A stretch of 62,652 nt of DNA, counting the filler, from Stramenopiles sp. TOSAG23-2 (taxonomy: Eukaryota), in assembly GCA_900128395.1 (NCBI GenBank). It is 30 parts of 30 records of this genome, joined end to end, with 100 filler letters (N's around TTAATTAATTAA, not from the genome) between each part and the next. Parts side by side here need not be neighbours in the genome. Positions count along the whole stretch, not along the records: positions 46,128 to 48,108 come from LT652146.1; 29 more parts are not named here. One strand, 5' to 3'. Positions 2,639-53,771 of the stretch are shown here, piece after piece. The notes below the pieces were generated by a model. It ran no database searches, was not told the DNA's origin, and worked only from the letters and a program-made list of their open reading frames with translations. Each line of letters starts with the position of its first letter. Within the stretch, counting starts at the first letter, position 1. The position numbers and the translations under genes were made by a program.

Positions 2639-2878
2639 AGTATGAAACGAATACTCGTATCTAAAAGAGAGAGAGAAAGAGGGGGAATTTTTGTCTAAAA
2701 AAATATTTTATGGTGTAACTTTTATTTCTTGTTGTTGTATGATAAAATGCTTGATCTTATAAAAAATACTTTCGTCTTTCTATCATTAATATCATACACA
2801 CACACATCACATAAACTTTAAACTTTTAAAAATTATATAGATATTACTAATATATCAACTGTATGCAACAAGAAAAAA

Positions 2879-3797
2879 TCACAAGGTAGCATTTGTATGC
2901 CCTAAATCAACTACAATTTCAGTCCCTGTCATAAACGAACTTGCTTCACTACAAAGTCTGCCATTATTTAAAACAAAAGATAATTGGGAAATAATTAATG
3001 TGTGTGTATAATTATGATTCATAATAATGTTAGAGATCATCTATATTTAACGAGAGAAAAAAAAAAAGAACTTACAATAACATTGGTCCATCTAATTCTG
3101 ATAATTGTCCTAAGCGTTTTGGTGGTATTCGTGATAAATATGCTTTACCAGGTGGTGAATTGAAAAATTCAGTATTCATTTCCGTTTCAAAATATCCTGG
3201 ACAAATAGAATTGATTCTAATATTATTTCTTCCTAATTCAGCTGCCATTGTTTTTGACATATGTAACAAACCAGCCTTTGCAGCACCGTAATTCACTTGA
3301 CTAGTACCAACTCTTAAACCTAAAATACTGGCAACATTCACTACTTGTCCTGGTATTTTATCTCGAACCATACGTTTACAAGCTTCTTGGGAGACAAAAA
3401 AGGCACCACGTAAATTAGTATTGAGTAATCCATCCCAATCATCTTCTTCTAGTTCCAATGATAATTTTGGATTTGCAATACCAGCATTATTTATCAAACA
3501 GTTAATTGTTGTACCAATTTGCGACTCTGCTTCATTAAAAGCTAATGAAATGGATTTACGGTCCGTGACATCCAATGATACAGTTATGATTTTACAGGAA
3601 GGATATTTAGTTGAGATTTCTGATTGCACTTTATCCAATTTTTCTTTTCTTCTTGCAGCCAATACAATATTTGGCGCGCCTGCACTTGCCATTAAATATG
3701 CAAAATGTTTGCCTAGACCTGACGATCCGCCGGTGATTAAGATATTTTTCTTTGTTAAATTAAAGATATTTGATAATACATTTGCTGATGATGACAT
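2879..3797 (-). CDS. Short-chain dehydrogenase/reductase (FabG-like); exons 3797-3076 and 2957-2879
   Basis: TGGSSGLG, NNAG and YGAAK motifs. A GTAAG..CAG intron at 3075-2958 (118 bp) restores the typical C-terminus LLCSEASSFMTGTEIVVDLGHTNATL*. Confidence 0.92.
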
Positions 3798-10787: not shown

Positions 10788-10873
10788 TAATCTACAAACC
10801 GATAAAAGTCATACCTGTGTACATACCAATCTACAAACTAATAAAATCATAGCTGTATACCAATCTACAAACC
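10788..10873 (+). repeat. Three imperfect copies of (ACC)AATCTACAAAC upstream of the zinc-knuckle gene
   Basis: AATCTACAAAC at ~10789, ~10828 and ~10862. Confidence 0.6.
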
Positions 10874-44046: not shown

Positions 44047-46027
44047 GGTACACAGGACTGGTTATTCGTAATGAACAAATAACCAGTGCTGTGTAGGCGC
44101 AACACTTTTATGGATAAGGTAATATTTTATTGTGTGATTTAGATTACAAATTATTATACTTCAATAGCTATGATATTTTCCTACCGAATTCCGTATTAAC
44201 AGGTGCACACAGGACTGGTTATTNNNNNNNNNNNNNNNNNNNNNNNNNNNNNNNNNNNNNNNNNNNNNNNNNNNNNNNNNNNNTCCTACCGACTTCCGGA
44301 TTAACAGGTACACAGGACTGGTTATTCGTAATGAACAAATAACCAGTGCTGTGTAGGCGCACCACTTTTATGGATAATGGACCCGATTAGGTAATGTTTT
44401 GATAGATGCACAGATGTAAATAAAAAATCTAAGGATGTGGGCAATAAATCGTCACAACATTGCGACGATGGAGAGTGAGGCAACCTGTGCAGCTGTGCAG
44501 CCTGTGCAGTGCTAATAAATTATTATTATTTCATGATGATGATGATGCTGGTAGTACACATTTATGGATACATGTATAGTTATATTTATTCTATTTATGG
44601 ATACTCATTAACATTTTGGATTATAAATATCCGGATACAGAGTATTTTGATACAGATATATATTATATTATATATTATCCAGAAAACAACAATTTTCAGG
44701 CTATCCATACAACGCAAACAGGCATATATACAGGCATTCCCGTGTTCGTTTCACATATATATATATATATATACAGAGTATTTTGCTAGATGTAGTAATA
44801 ATGATGATGATGAAGAACAACAAAACGGTAGTAATAATGCAAAACGTAAAGACATGGAACCACCAGTATCATTACGTTCATCTAAACGTTTACGAATGTA
44901 GTAATAATGATGATGATGAAGAACAACAAAACGGTAGTAATAATGCAAAACGTAAAGACATGGAACCACCAGTATCATTACGTTCATCTAAACGTTTACG
45001 AAAAACAAACAATGGTGTTCTTTTATAAGGAATTGATAAAGAGGATAATATTAGGTTAAAAAATGAAACATATATTTATGATCATTATTTCCTGCGCGGT
45101 AACGATCCACATATTATAAAAAGCAGGAACACAAGAAAGAAAGAGTTTATATCAATTATCACACAATGAAAGACGGAAGAGATATAGGATGTAAGAGATG
45201 GTGGGGGGGTGGTTGCGTAGTTGCGCTTACCAGCTTACCTTTTAAGAAAAAAATTTAAAATTACAGTGTTCTATGGCATGCTCTGGGTTTTAACGGCACC
45301 TTGTTCCTTATTGAGTAAAAAATTAAAAATTTAAAATTATTAAAAATTAAAAATACACATTTTATATCATTATTATTACGAGATTACGAGTATTATCATA
45401 TGGCTCAAATCGACAAAGATTTCCCCAGGTGCTGTGTAGGCGTAACTAAAATAAGCTAATTTTACGAAATTAAAAATTTAAAATTATTAAAAATTAAAAA
45501 TACACATTTTATATCATTATTATTACGAGATTACGAGTATTATCATATGGCTCAAATCGACAAAGATTTCCCCAGGTGCTGTGTAGGCGTAACTAAAATA
45601 AGCTAATTTTACGTAATGATATATAGATGCTAAATTTAAGCGCATGGGCTCTTCGTCTTCCATTCTTGGTCAATTTCAGGTCCTCCAATGCTTTGTTATA
45701 ATCTCCGAACCTAGAAGGATCTAGGAGCTGACCTTCGACCCCGGAAATCGACTTATCTCACTTTATGAGATTTGACAATTTCCAGATCGAAAAATTGAAA
45801 ATAAAAATGTTTTTACTTGCCTTGGTGTTGAAAAAAATAAAAAAAAATAAATAATTGCTTCATGTTTGGTCAATAACGTGTATCTCTGCAAGTTATTGGC
45901 AGCTAATTTTACGTAATGATATATAGATGCTAAATTTAAGCGCATGGGCTCTTCCTCTTCCATTCTTGGTCAATTTCAGGTCCTCCAATGCTTTGTTATA
46001 ATCTCCGAACCTAGAAGGATCTAGGAG
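44047..46027. repeat. Repeat-rich non-coding contig
   Basis: Direct repeats 44047/44307, 44790/44896 (106 bp), 45320/45467 (147 bp) and 45601/45901; GTGCTGTGTAGGCG four times. Confidence 0.8.
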
Positions 46028-46129
46028 NNNNNNNNNNNNNNNNNNNNNNNNNNNNNNNNNNNNNNNNNNNNTTAATTAATTAANNNNNNNNNNNNNNNNN
46101 NNNNNNNNNNNNNNNNNNNNNNNNNNNGG

Positions 46130-46639
46130 GTGGCAAGGAAATTGAGTTGGAAAGAAGTGAATACTATACTATCAAAAGCAAAAGGAAATACCAAATTGTT
46201 GGTATATCTGTTGTTTTTTCTTGGACTTCGCGTATCGGAGGCATTGAAATTGAAGAAAAAAGATATACGATATGGTGACAGATTGGTAACATCTGTCGTA
46301 GGAAAAGGCAACAAACCCAGAGATGTTCGTGCAGGGAAGGCAACATCGATATTTATATGGAATGTCATTAAAGGTTTACAGGATGAAGATTATTTGTTTC
46401 CATCTCGTAATGGGAAACATCTTTCTAGATGGTGGGCACAAAAAAAGTTGAAGAAATTGAATTCGAGAATATCACCTCATTGGTTGAGGCATGCATTCTG
46501 TTCATTAAGTATTCAAAATGGGTGTGATATTGGCACGGTGAGTATTGCAATGGGTCACAGTGATTTGGCAACCACGAGGGCGTATTGTCATGCAGCGGAG
46601 AAACCTGCAAGTGAGTATTTGGAGGAGTGTAGTATCTAA
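46130..46639 (+). CDS. Tyrosine recombinase (XerC/D / phage-integrase type) catalytic domain, 5' truncated
   Basis: Complete R-K-H-R-H-Y set: GLRVSEA, GKGNKPR, YLFPS, SPHWLRHAF, MGHSDLATTRAY. Confidence 0.93.
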   Translation: MARKLSWKEVNTILSKAKGNTKLLVYLLFFLGLRVSEALKLKKKDIRYGDRLVTSVVGKGNKPRDVRAGKATSIFIWNVIKGLQDEDYLFPSRNGKHLSRWWAQKKLKKLNSRISPHWLRHAFCSLSIQNGCDIGTVSIAMGHSDLATTRAYCHAAEKPASEYLEECSI

Positions 46640-46737
46640 TTTTATTATTAAATTATGTGTTTAAGTATTATTTAATACTCATCACAAAATAAAACATTTT
46701 TATGACCCCTATACGAATATTTTTTTAAAATTTTTTT

Positions 46738-48108
46738 TTAATAATAGGGACTCCATCCCGGATATATAAGTGCCAAATTTTCAGTATCAGTTGCCTCATT
46801 TATCAAAACATTAACATGACCTTCTATTCCCATTAAATTACCGTTATGGAATCCATTGAGCTTCTCTTTAATACGATTGATGGCTCTTTCTGCTTCTTTA
46901 TTTTTATTCATGGAAGATTGATCTATGTCTCTACGTCGACTACGCGTGACAGCATTTACATCATTTTCCATTATGTCGGTAAAATTGTTGTTGATTTCAA
47001 CGTTTGTACCTCCATTTCCCTCATTATTCTGTTCTGAATCATCGTCTTCCCTCATTTGATTACGTTGTTGCCACCGTTCCGCAGCATTTTTCCAATTACT
47101 TAATGGATTGTGGACAAACGCGTCAAAAATAAATAACAAAGCATCGTCATTGTTCCTTAAAACTCTCATAGTTTCTTCGCAAGATCGTTGAAAAACTCCT
47201 TCGTAGCCTAAAACTCCCATTCCATCAACAAAATCTCTAGTTAAACGGAATGGAACTTTTTCCGGCGTTGCCAATTGTTTTCCACCTTCAAATAATATAC
47301 CAAAATCTATATGAATCACTTCATATGTTTCTTTATCAATTAAAATATTCGATACGTGTCGATCACCTAATCCAATAATGTATCCAACTATGCTATTCAC
47401 TGCAACGCTTCTTGTAAACGCCAATCTATTTTTATACCAACGTTGGCTTTCCGGGCATCGGACAACCATCTCGTCATACATACAAGGCTTAAACTTCTGA
47501 CAAATCTCCTTGAATAACTTAATTCTATGTGCCGGCTTTTTCTTTGAAGACAATGCGTCCCTCAACATGATGCTGACTTTACTAGCTGACAAGTCATTTG
47601 GTCTTAAACGNNNNNNNNNNNNNNNNNNNNNNNNNNNNNNNNNNNNNNNNNNNNAACGTGCATGGGCAGTTAAAAGGAACTCTCCAATTGGTTTCGTCTT
47701 TTTACCAGCCAGTTCTATTACCCCTACATTACTAGACAATGGCGCAATGTTATATGTTCGCATATTTAATCTCCTGTCACGACATTTATGATCTTTGCGC
47801 AATAAAGAATTTACCACGGAAAATACTTGCTCTACCACCTCGTCTCCACGCATATCATCCCCAGCCTTCACAATTTGAGTATATGCTTTGCCATTTCCAT
47901 CAAAACATGTAATTAATTTAGGGCGACTAAGACCATTTAAAACAGTGAAATTGTTATCGATTTGACATAATTTCGGCAAATCTTTATCAGCTACAGCAGC
48001 AGTTCCTTTCCCACCAGTCCAAATAGCTACTAATCCTTGTTTCAAGTCTGCCGCGTTAATACAAGAATTCCAACTTTCCACTACTCCCCCAAAGTCTTTG
48101 TATACTGA
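46738..48108 (-). CDS. ATM: ATM/Tel1-like PIKK kinase, kinase + FATC domains (5' truncated; internal N gap 47611-47654)
   Basis: QIVKAGDDMRGD..QVF, TRSVAVNSIVGYIIGLGDRHVSNILID, HIDFG, PEKVPFRLTRD and FATC IEGHVNVLINEATDTENLALIYPGWSPYY. Confidence 0.88.
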   Translation of the reverse strand, partial: SVYKDFGGVVESWNSCINAADLKQGLVAIWTGGKGTAAVADKDLPKLCQIDNNFTVLNGLSRPKLITCFDGNGKAYTQIVKAGDDMRGDEVVEQVFSVVNSLLRKDHKCRDRRLNMRTYNIAPLSSNVGVIELAGKKTKPIGEFLLTAHARXXXXXXXXXXXXXXXRLRPNDLSASKVSIMLRDALSSKKKPAHRIKLFKEICQKFKPCMYDEMVVRCPESQRWYKNRLAFTRSVAVNSIVGYIIGLGDRHVSNILIDKETYEVIHIDFGILFEGGKQLATPEKVPFRLTRDFVDGMGVLGYEGVFQRSCEETMRVLRNNDDALLFIFDAFVHNPLSNWKNAAERWQQRNQMREDDDSEQNNEGNGGTNVEINNNFTDIMENDVNAVTRSRRRDIDQSSMNKNKEAERAINRIKEKLNGFHNGNLMGIEGHVNVLINEATDTENLALIYPGWSPYY

Positions 48109-48208
48109 NNNNNNNNNNNNNNNNNNNNNNNNNNNNNNNNNNNNNNNNNNNNTTAATTAATTAANNNNNNNNNNNNNNNNNNNNNNNNNNNNNNNNNNNN
48201 NNNNNNNN

Positions 48209-49411
48209 GGTGGTAGTAATAAAAGAAAATATGGTGTTGATAATAATAGTAATATTGAATTTTACCCATCTATTGTTGTAGATAATAATAAAGACGCTTT
48301 AGCAACAGCACAGGAAAATTTAGACAAAATGACCATGGTGGAAAACTTCAAAATTGAAAAAACAGAGAAAGAAAATGATGAAGTTATTAAATTAATAAAG
48401 AAATGTATTGCATCAAAGTATGGAGGTGGACTTATAGTAGATGGCTCCCCATGCCAAGCATTGAGTGCTGCAAATGCAAAACGTAAAAGAAATGATGATA
48501 GAAATTCATTATACATAGCTGGTGGAAAAATTGGTTTGATTGGTGATATATATATTAAAGAAAACTCACCGGAAGTTTTAGCACCTGATGAAAATGGTAA
48601 TTTTTTTGCACAAGAACTGGGGCAATTGTTTGAACAAGCAGGTTATCAAATTGGTATTTTTATTTTGTCTGGACCATTCTTTGGCATCCCACAAACACGT
48701 AATCGTGCCTTTTTTTTGGCAATAAAAAGTGGAAGAAGTTTTCCCACATCAATTAAAAATACACACACTGTACTTGAAAGAAATGGAAGAAAATGGAAAC
48801 CATCCTTTTTAAAAATGAATAAGGAATTCAGGGCTAATTGCAATGGTTTAAATGAGTGGAATTTACGACATCCTGTTGATGGTACAAAACAACTGCTGGG
48901 ACCTGTCACTGTATATGATAAATTAGCAAAATATTTAGACCAACCATTGCAAATAAAAAATGCACATTTTGTAAAAAATTCTCACAAGGCATCAACAATC
49001 AATGCACATGCAGACAATAATAATAACAATGATAGTCAAAATGTGAAAAGAAAACAAGATAATACATTACAAAAAGAATATTACGCGCCAACTATTTTAG
49101 CATCTGGTCCAAAATCAGCTGGAACAGGTGAGACTGGTGGGTCCATGTGGCATTTTCGTCATAATAGAACACCCACAATACGCGAAGCTGCAACGTTGAT
49201 GGGTTTCGAAGACGACTTTAATTTTTGTGTGTCACGGGATAGCAATACAGTTGGTACTACTGCAGAATTTGATGCATATTGGAGAATGATGGGAAATGCA
49301 GTTATACCACCAATTGCAAAAGCTATTTCTAGTGAAATTTTAACATCATTGCACAACGATCAAAATATTGAGGAGGAATTAAAGGAAAAATTAGTAGAAT
49401 TGAGAAATTAA
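48209..49411 (+). CDS. C5 cytosine DNA methyltransferase (motifs II-X; 5' truncated)
   Basis: VVDNNKDAL (II), GSPCQALSAAN (IV, catalytic PC), ENSP (VI), FGIPQTRNRAF (VIII), RTPTIREAATLMGF (IX) and MGNAVIPPIAKAI (X). Confidence 0.9.
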   Translation, partial: GGSNKRKYGVDNNSNIEFYPSIVVDNNKDALATAQENLDKMTMVENFKIEKTEKENDEVIKLIKKCIASKYGGGLIVDGSPCQALSAANAKRKRNDDRNSLYIAGGKIGLIGDIYIKENSPEVLAPDENGNFFAQELGQLFEQAGYQIGIFILSGPFFGIPQTRNRAFFLAIKSGRSFPTSIKNTHTVLERNGRKWKPSFLKMNKEFRANCNGLNEWNLRHPVDGTKQLLGPVTVYDKLAKYLDQPLQIKNAHFVKNSHKASTINAHADNNNNNDSQNVKRKQDNTLQKEYYAPTILASGPKSAGTGETGGSMWHFRHNRTPTIREAATLMGFEDDFNFCVSRDSNTVGTTAEFDAYWRMMGNAVIPPIAKAISSEILTSLHNDQNIEEELKEKLVELRN

Positions 49412-51613: not shown

Positions 51614-52366
51614 CAGTGTGTATTTATAATCATATATGTATATATATCATTTATTTAATATTTCAATTATTGTGAGGATTATTATTATAATAGATATACA
51701 AAGTCTACATATATGTGGAATAATATGTGATAAGTTCGTCGATATAAAATATAAAAATAATAAATTTACTATTATTATTATATATAATAATACATGGACG
51801 AGGAGCTACTCATAATATCTTACCTGCTCATACTTTTTTAAAAATATACTAAGTATATATATTTGTATACTAAGATTACAATTTGATTTGATATAATTAT
51901 TAGTATACAAATTTATATACTTAATATATTTTTAAAAAAGCATGAACGATTTTAGATTTGCATTTCAGATAATACTCCTTGGAAAAACGCATCAAAATTC
52001 AATATCATTGCCCGGATTGCCAGATTGCCAGATTGCCAGATTGCAATTAGTGCTACCTGGTATTATCTAATACCTGCCTGGATATAGTGAGACGTTGGTT
52101 AGCAAAGTTTTGAGTGAATATGGTCGTCTAATAATAAAAATAATATATATATATATATATATATCTTGAAATACTGTAGAAACCACACAAGAAAACATAC
52201 ATTTATACATGTACCCATTCATATTTAAAGAGACGGATATCATATGTATTCAAATATGTTTCAAATNNNNNNNNNNNNNNNNNNNNNNNNNNNNNNNNNN
52301 NNNNNNNNNNTTAATTAATTAANNNNNNNNNNNNNNNNNNNNNNNNNNNNNNNNNNNNNNNNNNNN

Positions 52367-53771
52367 TACCACGCTCTGCATTACTTTCTGTCAATGCTTG
52401 TTGCAATCGATCGTTACGCGCGTTTTCTTTTTCAATGGTTTGCTTAGCGTCGAATAATGCAGTGTCTAACTCTCTGTTTTTATGAGTCAAGGACTCTAAA
52501 TCTGCTATACGTTGTAAATGTGCTTGCTCCGCTTGGTTCGCATTCATTTCTGCAAGTTGTTGGGCGTTTAACGCATCATCTCTAGCATTTATTGCTTCTT
52601 CGTTTGCTTGCTTTAACCCATCCATTTCCTCTTGCATGCTTGTTATTGTTGCGTTTAAATTTTTAATCTCTGCCTCAAATTCACCACATTGCTCTTGAGT
52701 AGCGTTTAACGCATCATCTCTAGCATTTATTGCTTCTTCGTTTGCTTGCTTTAACCCATCCATTTCCTCTTGCATGCTTGTTATTGTTGCGTTTAAATTT
52801 TTAATCTCTGCCTCAAATTCACCACATTGTTCTTGAGTACGTTTTAAATCTTCCCTAACTTTTTTCAATTCATTATTACGATCCGCTAAATTTTCATTCA
52901 TACGCACACTTTCATCACGTAATGTATTCTTTGTATCTGTTAAACTTTGCTCTGTAACTTTCAGTGTAGATTCGACCTGAGCTAAATCCTCTTCTGCTTT
53001 ACGGGCATTTTTATTTGCTGCAACTTGTTCTTCTATGGAACGTTGCAGTTCCGCCGCTTGCTTCGCCTTTTGTGTCTCTGCAAGTGCTTGTTGTTCTGAT
53101 ATATAATTTTTCAGTTGTTCGTATGCTTTGTCGCGTTTTGTCAATTTTGCTTGCAATTGCAATAAATTTTCTGCAGTTTCCTCTGCTTCAGCACGATATT
53201 TCTCTTCCATATCCCTAAATGAACGATTGAGTTGCGACATTTGATCATCAACACTCAAGCTCATGGATGGCACATCTTCACCTGCATTAGCTCGTAAAAA
53301 TTGAGTTTCCATCTCCAAAAAATATATTTGTTGCTGTAAATTGTGAACATAATCTTTCCCCACCTTACCCATAGGTTTAGCACCACTCGGACGGCTAGAG
53401 CCCCCTGGTGCTGCATGAATCTGACCGCTTGGTCTTGGTGGTAGAACTGAACGTGGAGTTGGTGTCGGTAAAGCTGGTGCACCACGTCTACCTGCTACTG
53501 CACCTCCTCGTCCTCTACCTCTACGTGCTTGTTCATGTGCTCTCCGCTTTTGAGTGCGTTTATTTCTTGCTTGTGAATTTGGTGAAGTTACTGGAATTCT
53601 CATCTCCACCCTTCCTCTATTAACAGGCGGTTGATTATGACGTGTAACTCTTGCATTTGTACCGGATCTTGCTTGTGAATTTGGTGAAGTTACTGGAATT
53701 CTCATCTCCACCCTTCCTCTATTAACAGGCGGTTGATTATGACGTGTAACTCTTGCATTTGTACCGGACAT
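52367..53771 (-). CDS. Long coiled-coil protein (3' truncated) with two in-frame exact duplications
   Basis: Basic disordered N-terminus, YVHNLQQQIYFLEME and a heptad-rich region; duplications of 102 bp (~53565/53667) and 138 bp (~52564/52702). Confidence 0.75.

Follow-up and report, generated by a model that had tools for sequence, protein, structure and literature searches.

The piece at positions 46128–48108 of a 62,652-base stretch of DNA from Stramenopiles sp. TOSAG23-2, the whole of which is called the window here, carries the 3′ part of a gene for a compact, Xer-like tyrosine recombinase. The gene is best regarded as eukaryotic rather than as that of a contaminant or a virus, because no family member was found in the prokaryote and virus collections searched, the neighbours of a close relative on the metagenome contig L001 are cellular, its composition is host-like and it is present in poly(A) RNA. 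The recombinase is also predicted to be functional, since the ratio of nonsynonymous to synonymous substitution rates (dN/dS) is low, the catalytic residues are invariant and the modelled fold is confidently that of a recombinase. Its role is proposed tentatively and at slightly less than an even chance: in the nucleus of a marine, AT-rich stramenopile of MAST-4 type, the gene would serve a low-copy mobile unit that consists of the recombinase only.

The recombinase and its fold

The open reading frame (ORF) at 46130–46639 on the plus strand matches the catalytic domain PF00589 with 87 bits, against a Pfam cutoff of 27.1, and is the one recombinase copy in the window. All six catalytic residues (R, K, H, R, H, Y) are present in an alignment to XerD, where they fall on the catalytic positions that we take to be R148/K172/H244/R247/H270/Y279 in the Escherichia coli protein. 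An earlier, sequence-only reading of the window had described an XerC/D-like catalytic domain with the complete residue set, ending at 46639 and free of introns, as a prokaryote-type enzyme within a eukaryotic genome. This description was borne out by the Pfam score and the located codons; the visible part is uninterrupted, full-length relatives are single ORFs, and the likeness extends to XerC, XerD and XerA. The same reading had called the recombinase intact, which does not hold for the window copy: the ORF covers residues 99–267 of a 267-aa protein, its 5′ side being cut by the start of the piece. A contig of the public RNA run X17 extends 259 nt upstream of 46130, and the last 30 letters of this extension, translated by eye, read IKVPRAQKCR, as do residues 89–98 of the full-length family protein P0001. 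The missing N-terminal part therefore exists, and the truncation is an assembly limit.

Full-length members of the family are 266–267 aa long and consist of a SAM-like N-terminal domain (PF02899) and the catalytic domain PF00589. The SAM-like domain opens the protein, and the chain stops 17 residues beyond the catalytic Tyr; longer database versions represent upstream read-through only. An AlphaFold model from a 43-row alignment had a mean pLDDT (predicted local distance difference test) of 89.2. The top Foldseek matches of this model were IntI4, XerD, XerH, the Brujita integrase and XerA, all with probability 1.00, a value also given to Cre and lambda Int, and the sequence matched XerD (1a0p) among solved structures with E 5.6e-20. 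In P0001, PF00589 (87.2 bits) and PF02899 are the sole Pfam matches. Against the NCBIfam equivalog models, P0001 aligned end to end with XerD (133.4 bits, cutoff 329.6), XerC (130.3, cutoff 335.15) and XerA (128.8, cutoff 220), yet far below the cutoffs, and XerS gave 46.3 bits against 267. The protein is therefore predicted to be Xer-like in build, while lying outside the Xer orthologous groups.

Family members and nearest relatives

A word-indexed search gave 28 hits from 73 candidates, 15 of which were 62–97% identical, the next standing at 37%. The family is a tight one, with identities of 65–96%. Seven family clusters hold 61, 52, 15, 17, 7, 34 and 11 members, almost all of which stem from marine assemblies. 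A eukaryote proteome collection (eukprot) supplies two members, one per proteome among those examined, and member P0074 is labelled 'Stramenopile-MAST_4' by its source. None of the catalytic residues varies among the 13 aligned family members; R132, H215, R218, H219, H241 and Y250 are invariant across all 43 rows of the tree alignment. Frameshifted or truncated variants (P0064, P0069 and P0089) also occur. Among the loci kept from metagenome contigs, four of 80 belong to the family at 70–85% identity, the other 76 being at most 35% identical.

When 1.84 billion representatives were searched exhaustively with HMMER, 48,098 recombinases were recovered at E ≤ 0.001, only 17 of them at E ≤ 1e-30. 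These 17 comprise family fragments and about seven proteins of 259–276 aa from marine data, which are 35–42% identical to the family and share its start, length and C-terminal end. The latter, intermediates of ~260 aa (P0235, P0237, P0238, P0239, P0241, P0245 and P0247), had no relative above 32% in the prokaryote-genome or IMG/VR scans; these deeper marine relatives are likewise without a prokaryotic or viral home in the collections searched. A homology search around them returned no named members. A protein atlas search gave generic recombinase clusters only.

A quick tree was built from 43 rows, namely ten family members, seven intermediates, 23 representatives and three bacterial-type hits. 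The representatives were picked by hand from 150 listed HMMER matches as single-domain, full-length proteins, fragments and proteins above ~300 aa being left out, and support was given by the Shimodaira–Hasegawa-like approximate likelihood ratio test (SH-aLRT) only, without bootstrap. In this tree the family forms one branch (SH-aLRT 99), and the family, the intermediates and P0290 together form another (SH-aLRT 97), apart from the other 25 rows.

Family-specific peptide patterns gave 19 matches, none of them a relative, in 185,579 prokaryote species with one genome each, and a wider alignment on prokaryote genomes gave 70 relatives with a best full-length match of 32%. In IMG/VR, the family-specific patterns and the wider alignment yielded 89 and 37 relatives, respectively, with no family member among them and a best full-length identity of 32%. 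Phage and plasmid records reached at most 33%, and all prokaryotic, phage, plasmid and virus relatives are at most 37% identical. One contig of a giant-virus metagenome-assembled genome (L241) carries a 30%-identical recombinase.

Selection, composition and presence in RNA

The dN/dS was 0.17 between the window copy and that of L001 (dS 0.45), 0.16 between the window and L002, 0.10 between L001 and L002 and 0.07 between L003 and L004, the L numbers denoting metagenome loci of the family; dS is saturated between deeper subclades. These ratios indicate that the family is under purifying selection. The GC content of the window copy is 0.39 and its third-position GC content (GC3) 0.35, beside a GC3 of 0.17–0.34 in 11 other window ORFs. 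The copies in L003 and L004 have a GC3 of 0.55–0.60 and GC-richer upstream flanks. The base composition of the recombinase thus tracks that of its host.

The stretch was found in 20 of 24 listed public runs, from 12 studies, and six of the 20 were RNA. Contigs over both the recombinase and the neighbouring kinase ORF are present in X3 (oligo-dT) and X17 (poly(A)), two runs from two studies, providing good but not final evidence of transcription. In the DNA run X5, recombinase contigs had a depth of 3–8.5 and the kinase contig one of 6.4. Recombinase bins were deeper than kinase bins in X3 and X1, a difference that was left unused because these depths sum contigs of several organisms.

Much of this would also be expected of a domesticated, single-copy and vertically inherited Xer-like recombinase that acts on the DNA of the protist itself, an explanation that we consider rather unlikely. 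Possible uses would be the resolution or inversion of a specific nuclear or extrachromosomal segment, or DNA binding only. The low dN/dS with saturated dS between subclades, the host-tracking composition, the monophyly of the family with its subclades and the invariant catalytic residues agree with domestication, as do the similar depth of recombinase and kinase in X5, the single member per proteome and the presence of the gene in poly(A) RNA libraries. Against these stand 3′ neighbours that differ between lineages only 0.45 apart in dS, an X5 kinase flank unlike that of the window and the existence of frameshifted variants. Moreover, L001, L003 and L004 have no conserved candidate for a substrate site in common, and the members, which begin in the SAM-like domain, have no N-terminal extension for organelle targeting.

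Genomic setting in related loci

An 85%-identical recombinase copy lies on the 14-kb contig L001, with 10 kb of sequence before it and 3 kb behind. Its neighbouring genes encode EIF3I-like WD40, YbjQ-like, HYPK-UBA, TMEM65 plus GAF, ATG22/MFS and Peptidase_S74-domain proteins and a 590-aa ORF without Pfam match, and they sit in AT-rich DNA with asparagine-rich inserts. One option suggested earlier places the recombinase at the border of an endogenous Polinton-like virus or virophage, for which capsid, A32 packaging ATPase, pPolB, helicase and reverse transcriptase genes would be the hallmarks. None of these genes stands in the flanks of L001 (10 kb and 3 kb), where only cellular neighbours were found, and with the best IMG/VR relative at 32% identity the suggestion is not upheld.

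An integrase at such a viral edge, that of a giant virus included, or one on a nuclear plasmid, is therefore seen as very improbable. Family-specific patterns found no family member in IMG/VR, and the 48-bp repeat motif of L001 described below has no match in the window with up to three mismatches. On the other side, relatives occur on long contigs with unread neighbours (P0089, 216 kb; P0069, 31 kb; P0383, 81 kb), the giant-virus contig L241 holds its 30%-identical recombinase, and the 48-bp inverted repeat pair brackets ~1.04 kb of DNA 3′ of the gene in L001. No tRNA and no Rfam match, which could be att-type anchors, was found in L001–L004.

Several repeats were observed in these loci. The 48-bp inverted repeat of L001 (92%; 10811–10858 and 11898–11945) surrounds ~1.04 kb of AT-rich, ORF-poor DNA that begins 13 bp after the recombinase stop, which may represent either a short element with inverted repeats or DNA that can invert. 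A 38-bp unit stands in tandem ~40 bp before the recombinase start codon, in three copies in L001 (9849–9962) and two in the 98.6%-identical L002 (313–385). It occurs only in these two of 149 loci, being absent from L003 and L004, and a binding-site or promoter function is conceivable. L003 (28–38) and L004 (437–447) have in common the 11-nt word TGGCCCGACAC, ~100–125 nt upstream of the recombinase start; TGGCCCGACAC lies in a GC-rich leader that is otherwise unalignable between the two. The gene in L001 is also bordered by a direct repeat of 13 nt, whose chance of arising by accident is put at ~0.1–0.2. L001 also contains a 590-bp inverted copy of a WD40 gene at both contig ends (1–589 and 12952–13541, 99.7%) and an exact 814-bp direct duplication (1263–2076 and 2691–3504), which reflect either a chimeric or fold-back assembly or real segmental duplication. 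Synteny on the 5′ side, between an upstream ORF of L004 and the 590-aa ORF of L001, was rejected as too weak (E 0.011 over 30 residues).

The junction with the ATM-type kinase

The convergent ORF at 46738–48108, on the minus strand, has PI3_PI4_kinase and FATC domains (Pfam). Its best match among solved structures is ATM (6k9k, E 1.6e-63), aligned to the extreme C-terminus, Tel1, ATR, SMG1 and mTOR being lower, and its named relatives are ATM proteins with 38–45% identity. The distance of 98 bp between the recombinase and the stop of the convergent ATM-like kinase, noted earlier, is confirmed by the kinase stop codon at 46738–46740, and the spacer of 46640–46737 is AT-rich as described, with 15% GC.

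Linkage of the two genes was examined on Logan contigs of four public runs, two of DNA and two of RNA, the pieces being taken as listed. Both ORFs are covered, and no listed contig bridges the recombinase and the kinase; the linkage proposed earlier is therefore unconfirmed. Among these contigs none spans 46659–46709 in the four runs, and the spacer 46640–46737 is without RNA cover in X3 and X17; such missing cover is not taken as evidence on linkage or on 3′ ends. In X5 the recombinase contig ends at 46658. A 1875-nt kinase contig of the same run has two differences from the window in 874 nt (99.8%) and continues past the kinase stop with 58 nt unlike the window spacer, a mismatch that could stem from a chimeric join in the window, from an insertion that is polymorphic or from rapid divergence of a spacer rich in homopolymers. 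Short AT-rich matches of X1 at ~46710–46766 were discarded; their loose ends are all different and they look like low-complexity hits.

In L001 a gene other than ATM follows on the 3′ side, and beyond the recombinase stop codon the DNA of this contig no longer resembles the window. Since a relative of 85% identity thus has another 3′ gene, a position just 3′ of ATM, for which the window offers a single 1.5-kb piece, is not a shared setting. As far as the contigs go, the tail-to-tail arrangement is unverified and in any case appears not to be conserved. The adjacency to ATM is probably incidental and may even be an assembly join.

This leads to the possibility of an artefact, in which the recombinase and ATM halves of 46128–47610 were misjoined or the recombinase came from prey, a symbiont or a contaminant. 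We judge it improbable overall, and a chimera accounts for most of what probability it has. The departure of the X5 kinase contig from the window at the stop codon and the want of a bridging DNA contig among those listed are compatible with a misjoin, as are the duplication artefacts carried by neighbouring pieces and L001 and the place of the piece among binned, unplaced fragments of ~2 kb. It is unlikely, however, that the source is prokaryotic, as the family is absent from the 185,579 prokaryote genomes and found in poly(A) or oligo-dT RNA; in addition, the gene is embedded among eukaryotic genes in L001 and its composition matches the window genes. A chimera formed within one genome is possible, yet it would leave the identity of the gene unchanged.

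A mobile unit as the preferred explanation

The gene may have been gained long ago from a prokaryote or a prokaryotic mobile element and kept in the protist lineage since. The protein would bind paired inverted arms around a short spacer, as do XerA, XerH, XerS and Cre, assemble as a tetramer and exchange strands through a 3′-phosphotyrosine at Tyr250 and a Holliday junction; by analogy with its family, this chemistry can be assigned with fair confidence. In the preferred explanation, the recombinase would serve a short, low-copy DNA unit encoding nothing else, which excises as a circle and re-inserts elsewhere, being Crypton-like in mechanism and not in ancestry. Such a mobile unit would account for differing flanks between close lineages. 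It is favoured because flanks differ at a dS of 0.45, the X5 flank differs from that of the window and frameshifted variants exist, and also because most eukaryotic tyrosine recombinases are selfish. A low copy number would fit it as well, since Cryptons are typically present in very few copies according to PMC3212892. The earlier alternative of a new recombinase-type DNA element or a domesticated recombinase thus survives with both of its branches alive, and the family itself is supported as eukaryotic and Xer-like.

Several observations weigh against a mobile unit. Neither a second copy in one genome nor defined termini, a target duplication or a circle junction was found, and 46128–47610 contains no direct or inverted repeat of at least 20 nt. 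The motifs that the flanks of L001, L003 and L004 share are weak. The similar depths in X5 and the single member per eukprot proteome fit a single-copy host gene equally, and domestication would explain the strong purifying selection and the host-tracking composition no less well. Assembly artefacts may lie behind the differing 3′ neighbours, in view of the duplications in L001 and in the preceding piece of the window, and errors of gene calling or sequencing behind the truncated variants. Finally, RNA libraries can hold DNA, the sole internal control being the 98-bp spacer.

Organization of the window

The window contains 61 N runs, 58 of which pair into 29 linkers, each composed of N44, 12 bases and N44. 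We take this pattern to be typical of unplaced contigs strung together by a linker with stops in all six frames. Length falls steadily from one of the 30 pieces to the next, from 2011 to 1976 bp. The window is a string of unlinked fragments, in which any finding that leans on neighbours across a linker is void. The 12-mer of the linker before the recombinase piece, at 46072–46083, is TTAATTAATTAA. Because the recombinase and kinase piece is exactly 46128–48108 (1981 bp), the window DNA upstream of 46128 is an unrelated fragment. Within the piece, 46128–47610 and 47655–48108 are scaffolded across N44, which falls inside the kinase, and the unbroken sequence joining both genes is therefore limited to 46128–47610 (1483 bp). 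Protein P0115, which is 100% identical to the last 290 residues of the kinase, shows that both sides of 47611–47654 abut, with zero residues missing. The features are given in Table 1.

Table 1. Coordinates of the recombinase piece, its genes and the bordering linkers.
Feature	Position	Strand	Basis or remark
Artificial linker, N44 + TTAATTAATTAA + N44	46028–46127		Parts the previous unlinked piece from the piece starting at 46128
Assembly piece (1981-bp scaffold)	46128–48108		N-run map; comparison with P0115
Tyrosine recombinase gene, 3′ part, residues 99–267 of 267, stop TAA at 46637–46639	46128–46639	+	ORF, Pfam, family alignment
Catalytic codons: R 46229–31, K 46313–15, H 46478–80, R 46487–89, H 46556–58, Y 46583–85	46229–46585	+	XerD alignment
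AT-rich spacer, 98 bp, between convergent stops	46640–46737		15% GC
ATM/Tel1-type kinase, C-terminal 456 codons, stop 46738–46740, open to the piece end	46738–48108	−	PI3_PI4_kinase and FATC
N44 scaffold gap within the kinase	47611–47654		No residues missing according to P0115
Artificial linker to the next unlinked piece	48109–48208		N-run map

Other pieces of the window have features of their own. The preceding piece contains exact tandem duplications of 147 nt (twice, 45320–45613) and 106 nt (twice, 44790–45001) as well as a 127-nt repeat (45601–45727 and 45901–46027, 99%); these repeats at 44790–46027 look like assembly artefacts or satellite-like repeats. The next piece encodes a C-5 cytosine DNA methyltransferase (48329–49411, plus strand; PF00145, 92 bits), whose match begins at profile position 63 of 324, the N-terminal S-adenosylmethionine-binding part being missing or outside the 1979-bp piece. 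A coiled-coil ORF at 52311–53771 on the minus strand has two internal exact repeats of ~34 and ~45 residues, which represent either tandem duplication inside the gene or another assembly duplication.

Significance

The protein adds a new branch to an enzyme family that is very well known, and it is the setting that is unusual: a compact Xer-type recombinase in the nuclear genomes of uncultured marine stramenopiles, where it is apparently expressed. To our knowledge, eukaryotic tyrosine recombinases are few and almost all reside in DIRS/Ngaro, Crypton, Starship and Tec elements, FLP plasmids or viral integrases. Literature searches for tyrosine recombinases together with MAST-4, and more widely, found no published description of such a family, supplements and subscription journals lying outside the search. 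It is thus conceivable, at odds a little short of even, that the sequences represent an undescribed eukaryotic family of compact Xer-like recombinases, maintained and expressed in MAST-4-type stramenopiles as either a new class of minimal transposon or a nuclear recombinase for programmed rearrangement. The transposon alternative would be a recombinase-only element, unrelated to Crypton, DIRS and Starship elements. If this is true, an intact, expressed and lineage-conserved bacterial Xer-type enzyme in abundant uncultured ocean grazers would be new, representing either eukaryotic mobile DNA of a new kind or, as a rare case, a prokaryotic site-specific recombinase in nuclear service. The protein, being small (267 aa) and self-contained, is easy to test, and it could be of practical use if its target site is short and defined.

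Comparison with known recombinase systems

Judged by protein architecture, the placement of the recombinase outside the usual eukaryotic groups, as the sequence-only reading had it, is supported. The integrases of virophages, Polinton-like viruses and giant viruses are likewise tyrosine recombinases in protist-associated DNA, whereas the present family has no viral genes nearby and a best IMG/VR identity of 32%. DIRS/Ngaro elements were rejected, with no reverse transcriptase/RNase H among the eight neighbouring ORFs of L001 or in the window piece.

Cryptons are the closest comparison in mechanism, if the candidate unit is a low-copy, recombinase-only one in a stramenopile nuclear genome. In PMC3212892, Cryptons are described as usually very low in copy number and without terminal inverted repeats, their copies being bounded by 4–6-bp terminal direct repeats, among them 5–6-bp ones (TATGG), and excision as a circle followed by re-integration is proposed. 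The same paper reports CryptonS from oomycetes and diatoms, in stramenopile nuclear genomes, and gives as Crypton marks a DUF3504-like recombinase, GCR1_C and, in CryptonS, a conserved C-terminal region. The family protein is instead of the Xer type: its N domain is PF02899, and neither DUF3504 nor GCR1_C is matched; it ends 17 residues past the catalytic Tyr and so is without the conserved C-terminal region. With PF00589 and PF02899 as the only matches, a Crypton was ruled out by architecture.

The integron integrase IntI4 (PDB 2a3v; TIGR02249) is the top Foldseek match (E 8e-10, TMq 0.71). P0001, however, scores 91.4 bits against a cutoff of 265 and matches only profile positions 15–164 of 315, with only the N-terminal half aligning, and no attI site or cassette array was seen; an integron integrase was rejected on this score and partial match.

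The bacterial XerD and XerC (PDB 1a0p; TIGR02225, TIGR02224) have the same fold, with a SAM-like N domain, a catalytic domain and the full catalytic set, and residues 10–259 of P0001 align to positions 9–280 of 290 in the XerD profile. The family differs from them in being only ~26–30% identical and ~25–30 residues shorter and in having a eukaryotic nuclear host, and no partner recombinase, dif site or FtsK context was seen for it. A dif-type site consists of two ~11-bp inverted arms around a 6–8-bp spacer; the flanks of L001, L003 and L004 showed no conserved palindrome in common, the 11-nt word and the 38-bp tandem repeat of L001 and L002 being all that was seen. The archaeal XerA (PDB 4a8e, 5hxy; NF040815) differs in host domain, no dif-like site was identified for the family, and P0001, with 128.8 bits against the cutoff of 220, is no equivalog of it. 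Nevertheless, XerA is likewise a lone short recombinase of similar size, its profile positions 4–256 of 263 are matched by residues 5–255 of P0001, and it is the best NCBIfam match of the window fragment.

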